Shown here: piece by piece, positions 18,726 to 21,670 of the stretch
How positions within the stretch are numbered: the first letter of the stretch is position 1
Layout: each line of letters opens with the position of its first letter
Source: a virus
Taxonomy: Duplodnaviria; Heunggongvirae; Uroviricota; Caudoviricetes
Strand: one strand, 5' to 3'
Length of the DNA: 39,458 nt
IMG/VR virus record: IMGVR_UViG_2698536397_000026
Made by a program: the position numbers and the translations under genes
Notes under the pieces: generated by a model
Told to the model about the DNA's origin: nothing
The model's input: only the letters and a program-made list of their open reading frames with translations
Database searches by the model: none

Positions 18726-19850
18726 ATGAAGACGAAAAACACGCCCAAACTTGCTTATGCCATTCTGAATGCCATCAGCCTGTCCGCAGACGGGGACGGT
18801 GACTGGTGTCAGATCATGCCAGCCGGTCGGGTAAAGGCCCGTGACGGTCGCCCGGAAAAACCGGCCGAGGGCTGGCTGATCAACCATGCAGCCGTTGAGC
18901 GCATGGTCTCCCGGGTTGTGGCGCTCAATCAGCCAGTGAAAATTGACTACAACCACCAGACCCTGATTAAGGGGCATCAGGCACCGGCTGCCGGTTTTGT
19001 GATGGCCTCACCGGAGAATTTTCGCTTCAGTGAAGAGCGTGGCTTCGAGGTGCGCCCGAAGTGGAACCCTCCGGCCCTTGAACATCTGCGTAATAACGAA
19101 TTCCCCTGGTTTTCACCGGTGATTGGCTATGACGAGAACACCGGCGAACCTGTCGAACTTCGGATGCTGGCTATTACCGGTGACCCCGGTCTGACCGGCA
19201 TGAATCCTGTCGCCGCGCTGTCGGCGGATGACCTTTATAACGCCTTAAACCCTCCTTTAAAGGATACCTCCATGAATGAGCAATTACGCCAGTTGCTGAC
19301 GGCGCTCGGTCTGACCGTGGCTGACGGTGACGAATTTACGCCGGAGCTGGGCACGGCGGCGCTGTCTGCCCTCACCGGGATCAAAACCCGTGCGGATGCA
19401 CACGACAACCTGAAAACACAGGTCGCCAGTCTGTCGGCAGAGCTGGAAACCGCAAAAGGCACACCGGCTGGCGGCAGTATTGATCTGACGAAATACGTGC
19501 CCGTTGAAACGTATAACGCCCTGCGTACCGAATACGTTGCGCTGTCGGCGCAGCACGGCAGCACCACGCTGGAGCAGTTGCTGGACAAGGCTGAATCCGA
19601 AGGGCGCATCTTCAAAAGCGAACGCGGCTATCTGGAACAACTGGGCGGGCAGATTGGCGTTGCGGCACTTTCTGCACAGCTTGACGCCCGCCAGCCGGTT
19701 GCGGCCCTGACCTCTCTTCAGACCGACACCGTGACCGTGCCGGATAAAAAGACTGCCACCGCTGCGCTGTCGGCTGAAGATATCGCGGCCGCCAAACTGC
19801 TGGGTAAAACCGAAGCCGAGTTCCTGAAAATGAAAGAGGAAATGCAATAA
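18726..19850 (+). CDS. head protease / scaffold protein (Mu I-like)
   Basis: 374 aa directly upstream of major capsid gene, Ala-rich C-terminal half. Confidence 0.6.
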   Translation: MKTKNTPKLAYAILNAISLSADGDGDWCQIMPAGRVKARDGRPEKPAEGWLINHAAVERMVSRVVALNQPVKIDYNHQTLIKGHQAPAAGFVMASPENFRFSEERGFEVRPKWNPPALEHLRNNEFPWFSPVIGYDENTGEPVELRMLAITGDPGLTGMNPVAALSADDLYNALNPPLKDTSMNEQLRQLLTALGLTVADGDEFTPELGTAALSALTGIKTRADAHDNLKTQVASLSAELETAKGTPAGGSIDLTKYVPVETYNALRTEYVALSAQHGSTTLEQLLDKAESEGRIFKSERGYLEQLGGQIGVAALSAQLDARQPVAALTSLQTDTVTVPDKKTATAALSAEDIAAAKLLGKTEAEFLKMKEEMQ

Positions 19851-20797
19851 TGCCTACCCCGATTACACCGGCGATGATCACCGCCCTGATGACGGGCTAC
19901 CGTTCTGATTTTCAGGCCGGGATGTCCATGGCCCCGTCGCAGTATAAAAAAATTGCGATGACCGTGCCCTCCACATCGAAATCCAACACCTACGGCTGGC
20001 TGGGGCAGTTCCCGCAGTTCCGTGAGTGGATCGGCTCCCGCGTCATCGAGAAGATGAAAGCCTATGGCTATGCCATCGTGAACAAAACTTTTGAAGGCAC
20101 TGTTGCCATTAGCCGCGATGACTTCGAAGACGACAACCTCGGTATTTATTCCCCGTTGTTCCAGGAGATGGGGCGCGCTGCGGCGGTACAACCGGATGAG
20201 CTGGTCTTTGCTGCCCTGCGTGACGGGATCAGTGCGGCCTGCTATGACGGTCAGAACTTCTTTGATACCGAACATCCGGTTTACCCTAAAGTGGATGGCT
20301 CCGGGGATGCGCAGATGGTCAGCAATATGTTTGTGGCAAAAACCGGCTCTGTCGGCGCACAGGCTGATTACAGCGGTCCGGCCTGGTATCTGCTTGACTG
20401 CTCCCGCGCGGTAAAACCGCTGATTTATCAGGATCGCCGTAAGGCTGAACTGGTTGCCCAGACCAAAGTCGATGAAGGTCGCGCATTCACCGATAATGAA
20501 TTTGTGTTTGGTGCATCCGCCCGTCGCAATGTGGGCTACGGCTTCTGGCAGATGGCCTACATGATGCAGTCACCGCTGACGCTGGATGCACTGTGGCACG
20601 GCTGGTCAGCCATGCGCGAATTTACCGCTGACGGTGGCCGCAAACTCGGCATCAAACCCACCCATATTGTTGTCCCCACCTCGCTGGAAAAACAGGCGGT
20701 GCAGCTGCTGGAGCGTGAACTGTTCGCAGACGGAAACGCAACCGTCTCTAACGAGATGAAGGGCAAGCTGGAGCTGGTTGTCGCGGATTATCTGTAA
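19850..20797 (+). CDS. major head subunit (Mu T-like)
   Basis: 315 aa, TAATG-coupled to scaffold gene; followed by GC hairpin. Confidence 0.65.
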   Translation: MPTPITPAMITALMTGYRSDFQAGMSMAPSQYKKIAMTVPSTSKSNTYGWLGQFPQFREWIGSRVIEKMKAYGYAIVNKTFEGTVAISRDDFEDDNLGIYSPLFQEMGRAAAVQPDELVFAALRDGISAACYDGQNFFDTEHPVYPKVDGSGDAQMVSNMFVAKTGSVGAQADYSGPAWYLLDCSRAVKPLIYQDRRKAELVAQTKVDEGRAFTDNEFVFGASARRNVGYGFWQMAYMMQSPLTLDALWHGWSAMREFTADGGRKLGIKPTHIVVPTSLEKQAVQLLERELFADGNATVSNEMKGKLELVVADYL

Positions 20798-20840
20798 ACG
20801 GTGAGCCGGGCTTACGGCCCGGCCCCTGCGGAGGGCAAAT

Positions 20841-21254
20841 ATGAATGAACATCACACTGTGGCAGCAACAGATGATTCAGGTCTTCAGGTCAGTGGTGAC
20901 AATTCTGTCACGGTGCTGGCAGAAGTGCGTTGCAGTCGTTCGGCGTTTCGTCGTGCGGGGTTCCTGTTCACGCGTGGACGTCAGCAGGTTGAGGTCACCC
21001 CGGAGCAGCTTGCCCGACTGGAGGCGGAGCCATGCCTCACTGTGCGAATACTACAGACGTCTGCTGATGATGCGGGGAGCGTGGCGGGTGTGGTTCATGC
21101 AGTGGCCTGTACAGATTTAGCCGAAGCCGAAGCCGAAGCCGAAGCCGAAGCCGAAGCCGAAGCCGAAGCCGAAGCCGAAGCCGAAGCCGGACAGGATGCT
21201 CCCCGGAAAAAGACCGGTAACAAAGCGAAACAGGCGAAAAAGGCCCGCGCATGA
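20841..21254 (+). CDS. hypothetical head-region protein with (Ala-Glu)n repeat and Lys-rich C-terminus
   Basis: 137 aa; RBS GGAGGG; contains AEAEAEAE... encoded by GCCGAA tandem repeat. Confidence 0.55.
   Translation: MNEHHTVAATDDSGLQVSGDNSVTVLAEVRCSRSAFRRAGFLFTRGRQQVEVTPEQLARLEAEPCLTVRILQTSADDAGSVAGVVHAVACTDLAEAEAEAEAEAEAEAEAEAEAEAGQDAPRKKTGNKAKQAKKARA
21120..21191 (+). repeat. hexanucleotide tandem repeat (GCCGAA) x11 plus one imperfect unit
   Basis: Perfect tandem array seen directly in sequence, in frame within CDS 20841..21254. Confidence 0.95.
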
Positions 21255-21670
21255 ATTACGCCACTGAAACCGATATGCGGGCGCGTTACCGCGAGGATTT
21301 GCTCAGGCCGTTACTGGCTGTGCCCCGTTCGGATGAGCCGGACACGCGCAAGCTGAACCGGGCGCTGACAGATGCGTCAGCCCTTATCGACAGCTATCTG
21401 TCCGCCCGTTACACGTTGCCGCTGGAGGTTATTCCGGCCGTTCTTGTTCAGCACTGTTGCGCGATTGCCTTTTATTACCTGTGCGATCAGCGAGCCTCCG
21501 ATCAGGTGCGTGACCGTTACCGTGAAGCGCTGGCCTGGCTGAAAGATGTCATGAACGGCAATGTGCCGGTCGGTGTGGATACGAACGGTGCGGCCCCTGA
21601 ATCCGGGGATTTACCACTGGTTCAGTCTGATGCAGCGGTATTCGGGCGCAACCAGAAGGGCTTCATATGA
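21251..21670 (+). CDS. head-tail connector / hypothetical (Mu gp36-like position)
   Basis: 139 aa, ATGA-coupled. Confidence 0.5.
   Translation: MNYATETDMRARYREDLLRPLLAVPRSDEPDTRKLNRALTDASALIDSYLSARYTLPLEVIPAVLVQHCCAIAFYYLCDQRASDQVRDRYREALAWLKDVMNGNVPVGVDTNGAAPESGDLPLVQSDAAVFGRNQKGFI

Follow-up and report, generated by a model that had tools for sequence, protein, structure and literature searches.

A coding hexanucleotide repeat in a Mu-like prophage head-region gene corresponds to the MLVA locus EHC-5 and varies in whole units among E. coli genomes

Does the number of units in an in-frame tandem repeat of a phage head-region gene vary between related prophages, and does its length matter for the protein? 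We asked these questions for a hexanucleotide array in a stretch of 39,458 nucleotides from a tailed phage (Caudoviricetes; IMG/VR record IMGVR_UViG_2698536397_000026), which in the following is called the window. The positions of all features are collected in Table 1. A direct reading of the window gives eleven perfect GCCGAA units followed by a single GCCGGA, and Tandem Repeats Finder reports the same array (21119-21189, period 6, 11.8 copies, 100% matches, no indels, score 142) as by far the top-scoring repeat in the window. The longest run of period-6 identity at the array (that is, of consecutive bases identical to the base six positions upstream) is 65 bases long; in 200 shuffles of the window, the maximum was 11 and the mean 7.4. 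The array lies in frame 1 of its open reading frame (ORF), where it codes for (Ala-Glu)x11 (residues 94-115) and then for AGQDAPRKKTGNKAKQAKKARA; the Ala-Gly of the last unit leads over to the tail QDAPRKKTGNKAKQAKKARA. Eleven perfect units and one imperfect unit, all in frame, is also what the initial annotation of this DNA had described. Minus-strand ORFs also run over the array (LRLR..., SASA...); they are a by-product of its repetitive sequence.

Table 1. Features of the window around the repeat array (positions in the window; strand; remarks).
Feature	Position	Strand	Remarks
gpT, Mu-type major head protein	19850..20797	+	upstream gene; 67% identity to Mu gp34, 53% to JBD30 gp38
Shine-Dalgarno-like GGAGGG	20830..20835	+	5 nt 5' of the ATG, read from the sequence
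137-aa ORF, FluMu_N / HI1506-related / Mu gp35 family	20841..21254	+	homologous by position and domain to gp39, the JBD30 minor capsid protein
Folded N-domain, residues 24-73 (beta-hairpin, helix, strand; predicted)	20910..21059	+	AlphaFold2 pLDDT >90; Pfam match at residues 36-72; hhalign to gp39 58-106
EHC-5 forward primer ATACTACAGACGTCTGCTGATGA	21048..21070	+	exact match
Residues 74-93 (TSADDAGSVAGVVHAVACTDL), low-confidence, probably disordered	21060..21119	+	pLDDT about 46-65
(GCCGAA)x11 hexanucleotide array, (Ala-Glu)x11	21120..21185	+	variable part of MLVA locus EHC-5
Imperfect end unit GCCGGA, Ala-Gly	21186..21191	+	3' end of the array, constant in nearly all alleles
Basic C-terminal tail QDAPRKKTGNKAKQAKKARA, 6 Lys and 2 Arg, predicted disordered	21192..21251	+	AlphaFold2
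EHC-5 reverse primer CCGCTTTGTTACCGGTCTTTTTC	21206..21228	-	one mismatch, at the 5' base of the primer
Imperfect 9-bp tandem duplication GCGAAACAG/GCGAAAAAG, AKQ/AKK	21225..21244	+	inside the tail; also reported by Tandem Repeats Finder
Mu gp36-type head-tail adaptor	21251..21670	+	downstream gene; start overlaps the ORF stop (ATGA)

Judged by its sequence, the ORF is a real gene, because it matches the Pfam family FluMu_N (PF17891; 37.2 bits with a cut-off of 25.8, E = 2.4e-9, residues 36-72) and PHROG 3622 (E = 8.8e-78), is preceded by a Shine-Dalgarno-like sequence and overlaps the following gene in an ATGA. The PHROGs annotation of the ORF reads 'unknown function' only, the NCBIfam HMMs gave no match to it, and the identical gene is named 'HI1506-related protein' in RefSeq. 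The ATGA at 21251-21254 joins the stop of the ORF to the start of the gp36 adaptor gene, which suggests that the two are translationally coupled. The gene is part of a Mu-type morphogenesis module that consists of the gpI protease/scaffold (18726-19850), gpT, the ORF, gp36, gp37, DUF2635 and the tail sheath; its assignment to the head region can be made more precise, since it lies between gpT and the gp36 adaptor. A FluMu_N-type gene is found between gpT and gp36 in Mu as well. Furthermore, two distant prophages (loci L015/L016 and L018) share the order gpT, FluMu_N, gp36, and in a further one (L017) the FluMu_N gene stands at a contig end and precedes gp36, with only the gp36 side visible.

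Mu-like prophages of Shiga-toxigenic E. coli (STEC), among them the Sakai prophage Sp18, in which the gene with the array is ECs_4975, have DNA near-identical to that of the window. We also see the same Mu-like phage annotated inside Stx1a- and Stx2c-converting prophages (LC727895.1, 26750-27444, and LC727881.1, 53662-54338, two phage records that match positions 20700-21400 of the window); therefore, it has apparently transposed into other prophages in STEC. Between the gpT stop and the ribosome-binding site of the ORF there is a GC-rich stem-loop at 20800-20826 (stem 20805-20812 / 20816-20823) with a folding energy of -21.7 kcal/mol. Since its z-score is only -1.4 relative to shuffled sequences and a T tract is missing, it is not a canonical terminator; in Mu, a terminator is predicted at the equivalent place.

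To what extent does the array vary? Of 5,426 complete E. coli genomes, 228 carry the locus; it occupies 267 places in all, with up to four in one genome. In the eleven alleles that were fetched the units were counted directly, giving 1, 4, 6, 8, 13, 14, 15, 16, 17 and 20 units, next to the 11 of the window; every sequenced allele is in frame. In 86 complete genomes we find 19 length classes, equivalent to 1-20 units, where the class was inferred from the length of the match and agrees with every sequenced allele that overlaps. The lengths in these 86 genomes are spread broadly and almost continuously with no favoured value, and eight of the genomes have a single-unit allele. Some alleles have interrupted units, for example GTC (Val), GGA (Gly) or TCC (Ser), always with the frame kept; the long arrays remain perfectly pure. 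Hexamer slippage that alters the length of the linker and leaves the frame intact had been proposed from the window alone, together with a length polymorphism at the population level. Both are borne out by these counts, and copy number is not invariant among the homologues.

Alleles with 100% identical flanks of 629 bp carry 4, 6, 11, 16 or 17 units. The cattle isolates 113 and 140 have 14 and 13 units, respectively, and this is their only difference: outside the array their sequences agree throughout, over 15,124 bp on its left and 15,126 bp on its right. Because identical flanks carry differing numbers of units, slippage is recent relative to point mutation.

Frameshifted entries in the protein databases are rare (for example P0052, P0054 and P0071), and the complete alleles are otherwise full-length. 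P0071, an E. coli protein of 119 residues, has two compensating frameshifts, such that the array is read in frame 2 as (Lys-Pro)n and the tail is back in frame; this may be a sequencing error, or it may be a sign that the composition of the spacer is not critical. We further note many partial proteins that end in or at the array where their contigs end (P0056, P0058, P0062, P0064 and P0069), and P0058 alone represents 82 sequences. Prophage copies with unequal array lengths probably break short-read assemblies at this place.

Going by its sequence, the array is not a new locus: it is the published and already known multiple-locus VNTR (MLVA) locus EHC-5. This locus belongs to the scheme of Izumiya et al. 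2010 for EHEC O157, O26 and O111, and its primers are given in the S5 Table of PMC10062581, a PLoS One paper on MLVA of EHEC O157 with a Japanese 17-locus scheme derived from Izumiya et al. 2010. The two primers frame the array (Table 1), we found no further EHC-5 primer sites in the window, and the array and EHC-5 do not differ at the DNA level. Searching the literature by the repeat motif or for a VNTR of Sp18 yielded nothing; the link to EHC-5 came by way of the primer table. In PMC10062581, EHC-5 serves purely as a marker for typing, and we found no gene or protein named there as its location. Another MLVA locus, EHC-6, was considered for the window and rejected, as its forward primer is absent.

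According to PMC10062581, EHC-5 does not amplify in 76%, 31%, 100%, 97% and 60% of the isolates of clades 2, 3, 7, 8 and 12, respectively, and has 2-14 repeats elsewhere. Absence from many O157 strains together with multiple alleles in the others fits a VNTR that resides on a mobile prophage. The polymorphism that the initial annotation foresaw has therefore been in surveillance use since 2010. What our analysis adds is that a routine marker of EHEC surveillance is tied to the predicted disordered tail of a Mu-like prophage head protein. That the prophage is mobile and sometimes present in several copies, and that the tail is disordered, would explain why EHC-5 is null in most O157 clades and why anything from 1 to 20 units is tolerated. 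The same prophage context would also account for ambiguous or broken EHC-5 results, through contig breaks and through primer mismatches in some of the alleles. Still, the practical value of this is modest, as we are dealing with an ordinary coding VNTR.

As to the primers, the pair is exact in Sakai and in other short-tail alleles. The long-tail alleles, that of the window included, have a mismatch to the 5' end of the reverse primer, and alleles with TPADD in place of TSADD have no exact match to the forward primer. Such alleles were seen at loci L003, L006 and L011. Some 'null' or weak EHC-5 results in MLVA might thus be due to primer mismatch and not to the absence of the prophage, and prophage copies of unequal array length could give multiple EHC-5 peaks.

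Next, we asked what kind of protein carries the repeat. In an AlphaFold2 model, run with an alignment of 27 sequences, only residues 24-73 are modelled with confidence, and from residue 74 on the pLDDT is about 50, with both the repeat and the tail included. The (Ala-Glu)n stretch and the 22-residue Lys-rich tail are accordingly predicted to be disordered. The tail, rich in Lys and Arg, has a net charge of +6.8, so that the layout suggested earlier, an (Ala-Glu)n stretch between an N-terminal domain and a Lys-rich tail, is well matched by the model. Two motifs of the N-domain are conserved in the family, FRRAG (36-40) and AEP (62-64).

The ORF matches gp35 of phage Mu (51% identity over 41 residues, E = 2e-12), and its N-domain matches HI1506 / FluMu gp35 as well (PDB 2OUT, E = 9.8e-5). 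Where the window protein has (Ala-Glu)n, HI1506 has an acidic stretch of low complexity (GSQEGGEGLSKEPAGSDEQKQL...) after its N-domain. After the acidic flexible segment there is a helical C-domain in Mu gp35, in HI1506 and in P0083 of Edwardsiella (LNTRIRA...FTAGGEPKV...). The alignments give no counterpart of this domain in the window protein, which has (Ala-Glu)11 and a 22-residue tail instead. Mu gp35 and HI1506 thus share with it the N-domain, the slot between gpT and gp36 and an acidic flexible segment, whereas the folded C-domain is theirs only.

An exhaustive profile search found 4,470 cluster representatives of the FluMu_N family. We parsed the tails of 114 of them, the top-scoring ones with parsable tails; note that their ranking may be biased, since part of the columns of the query profile came from the tail. 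In 47 of the 114 the spacer is acidic and the end after it basic, and 35 have another kind of low-complexity tail, while 17 had the motif of the Mu-type C-domain and seven another helical module. Going by these sequences, a folded domain with a charged low-complexity tail is the usual layout of the family. Several of the members P0122-P0264 have tail repeats of their own, such as (EP)n, (AP)n, the AEAKAKAE type or the EKEAAEKDAADKKAAA type, and in P0123, P0210 and P0211 an exact dipeptide unit occurs at least three times in the tail. A few proteins, for example P0122-P0126, have two FluMu_N domains. A search of BFVD returned only other FluMu_N proteins and DUF7210 proteins, without a function.

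A link to a structurally defined protein is found in phage JBD30. The family profile matches chain B of PDB entry 8RKC (hmmsearch, E = 7.7e-7), which has 113 residues and is present in 427 copies; hhalign aligns the family with this protein, gp39, over 49 columns within its resolved, capsid-binding part at residues 53-113 (probability 95.7%, E = 9.4e-9), and a pairwise BLASTP comparison gives E = 2e-4. 8RKC is the JBD30 capsid decorated by gp39 trimers, which sit at the 3-fold and quasi-3-fold axes of the T=7 head and have a Soc-like beta-tadpole fold; gp39 is found on only about half of the virions, is absent from procapsids, and its first 52 residues are not resolved (PMC11445458). These residues are of low complexity and charged. 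The gp39 gene directly follows the major capsid gene gp38, the product of which is 53% identical to gpT of the window. The window protein and gp39 (8RKC/8RQE) therefore have in common a FluMu_N-type domain, a gene placed after a gpT-type capsid gene and a low-complexity extension. On the other hand, the extension of gp39 is N-terminal (residues 1-52), has no tandem repeat and no basic tip, whereas that of the window protein is C-terminal; the disulphide Cys67-Cys72 in the hairpin of gp39 corresponds to F36/F41 in the window protein; and JBD30 is a siphophage.

At the level of residues, FRRAG aligns with the tip of the gp39 hairpin and AEP with S95-D96, which form a pocket for a lysine of the capsid. 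More exactly, S95-D96-P97 of gp39 aligns with A62-E63-P64 of the window protein, which is near-invariant in the family. On the capsid side, K197 of the JBD30 major capsid protein corresponds to K206 of the window, and K66 corresponds to E67 with K68 adjacent. The pair formed by K100 of gp39 and E198 of the major capsid protein is T67 / V207 in the window proteins. The interface residues of JBD30 thus appear to be only partly conserved. Fold searches with the window protein did not return 8RKC_B, and they barely recovered 2OUT, which is a true homologue. Furthermore, Mu is the closer relative, judged by the 67% identity of gpT as compared with 53% for JBD30, and in the 3.2 Å map of the Mu capsid no cement proteins are seen and gp35 is not resolved. 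These three points, and the listing of Mu gp35 as a connector-complex protein in the curated Mu record, speak against a decoration role.

In our estimate the chances are about even that the protein of the window is a weakly bound capsid decoration protein, a reading that builds on its similarity to gp39. The initial annotation had called it virion-associated. The homology to the JBD30 minor capsid protein speaks for this part of the claim, whereas Mu gp35 has not been seen in the Mu virion, and we keep it in qualified form. What can be gained already is that the poorly annotated 'HI1506-related' and Mu gp35 proteins are linked to a minor capsid protein of defined structure. We regard this link and the layout of the family as leads for phage structural biology and not as surprises.

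Taken together, we think it quite probable that EHC-5 is a slippage-prone coding VNTR in a head protein of a Sakai Sp18-type Mu-like prophage and that its variation is mostly neutral; by its homology, the N-domain may be the part that binds the capsid. With a unit of 6 bp and a perfect array, slippage gains or loses whole Ala-Glu dipeptides and never shifts the frame. In detail, slippage during replication or repair would add or remove whole GCCGAA units; the N-domain would act as the capsid-binding module, by analogy with JBD30 gp39; and the acidic (Ala-Glu)n spacer with its basic tip would form a flexible appendage that projects from the mature head. The binding to the head would probably be weak or sub-stoichiometric. 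The broad distribution of alleles, the frequent single-unit alleles and the tolerance of interrupted units indicate a loosely constrained spacer. We infer from this that changes in length are tolerated and that neutral drift at a hot spot of mutation makes up most of the variation.

As for the mechanism of the instability, the strand of the array folds on itself with only -4.1 kcal/mol, which is weaker than in all of 200 shuffles. A hairpin-driven instability was therefore rejected; since the strand has no stable structure, simple slipped-strand misalignment suffices. Slipped-strand mispairing in perfect short tandem repeats is also the mechanism behind the phase-variable contingency loci of Haemophilus, Neisseria and Campylobacter. 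However, those loci switch genes on and off by frameshift or by promoter spacing, whereas the window array has a 6-bp unit, is internal to a coding sequence and switches nothing; a contingency locus was ruled out, since all 11 sequenced and nearly all database alleles are in frame.

Could the length differences be no property of the protein at all? They might be artefacts of sequencing or assembly, or the repeat might act at the level of DNA or RNA, through structure or regulatory spacing. It is true that many database proteins end at the array where contigs break, and that P0071 needs two frameshifts to be read. However, the differences between complete genomes are exact multiples of 6 bp in otherwise identical sequence, and assembly error is unlikely because fragment sizing of PCR products by capillary electrophoresis, as done routinely in MLVA, sees the same kind of variation. 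A role at the DNA or RNA level is opposed by the lack of a stable structure of the array strand, by the search around the array, in which no promoter-like site was found, and by the variant units, which preserve the frame. We give this explanation hardly any credence.

A different question is whether the repeat has been kept because the number of its units rapidly alters the length and charge of an appendage on the capsid surface. Such tuning would diversify the aggregation of virions, their sticking to mucus, LPS or surfaces, and their recognition by antibodies. At pH 7, the net charge of the protein is +1.8 for a single unit, -8 for 11 units and -17 for 20 units, and each T=7 head would hold up to about 420 copies if the protein were bound in the manner of gp39. 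It could be that this swing in charge matters for function. Charged low-complexity tails being the commonest architecture of the family, and the purity of the long arrays, would also agree with selection. However, slippage alone yields pure long arrays, the alleles are spread widely and almost without gaps and favour no particular length, single-unit alleles occur in eight of the 86 genomes and interrupted units persist; moreover, the element is for the most part a silent prophage. We thus hold adaptive tuning to be improbable. In its strongest form, in which the outside of the virion would have a fast-mutating dial in the EHC-5 repeat, the idea is very improbable in our view. If the protein decorated the head with up to about 420 copies as gp39 does, alleles of 1-20 units would shift the charge of the capsid by thousands of elementary charges, the repeat length would also set the reach of the basic tip, and colloidal behaviour, adhesion or antigenicity would vary between sibling phages. 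In that case, the FluMu_N tails with an acidic spacer and a basic tip would represent a kind of disordered capsid 'brush' that had not been recognised before.

The protein could also be an accessory factor of head completion, of the connector or of DNA packaging, in the manner of lambda gpFI, instead of a decoration. Its N-domain would then dock on the head and its basic tail bind DNA or the terminase, with (Ala-Glu)n as the tether. The curated GenBank record of Mu lists gp35 as a head-to-tail connector complex protein, and the authors of the Mu cryo-EM work, who saw no cement protein, suggest a connector-related role; gp35 was, on the other hand, not found in the resolved portal-adaptor-terminator complex of Mu either. 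A SAP/HeH-like helical module forms the end of HI1506 (residues about 88-121) and of P0118, and other members have Lys-rich tips. Such modules and tips are typical of nucleic-acid binders. The overlap of the ORF stop with the start of the adaptor gene would suit an accessory factor too. The lambda gene FI has the same position, directly after the major capsid gene, and its product follows a logic of two modules and a linker, as in the window protein. The function of gpFI as a packaging chaperone is summarised in PMC13595911. Gene position and layout are thus alike in gpFI and the window protein, and there is no detectable similarity in sequence or fold: two fold searches returned neither gpFI (2LSM) nor any neck protein, and a gpFI-like chaperone was rejected on these grounds and kept as a weak functional analogy. 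Furthermore, in the sole solved virion structure with a family member, that member sits at the 3-fold axes of the capsid and is absent from procapsids. On balance, we consider an accessory factor unlikely, and the preferred reading stays that of a mostly neutral VNTR behind a putative capsid-binding domain.

Finally, the basic tail has a length variation of its own. The tail alleles of E. coli are either long (...NKAKQAKKARA) or short (...NKAEQARA or ...NKAKQARA). The 9-bp indel at the tandem duplication in the tail (Table 1) produces a second series of lengths, offset by 3 bp from the hexamer series.
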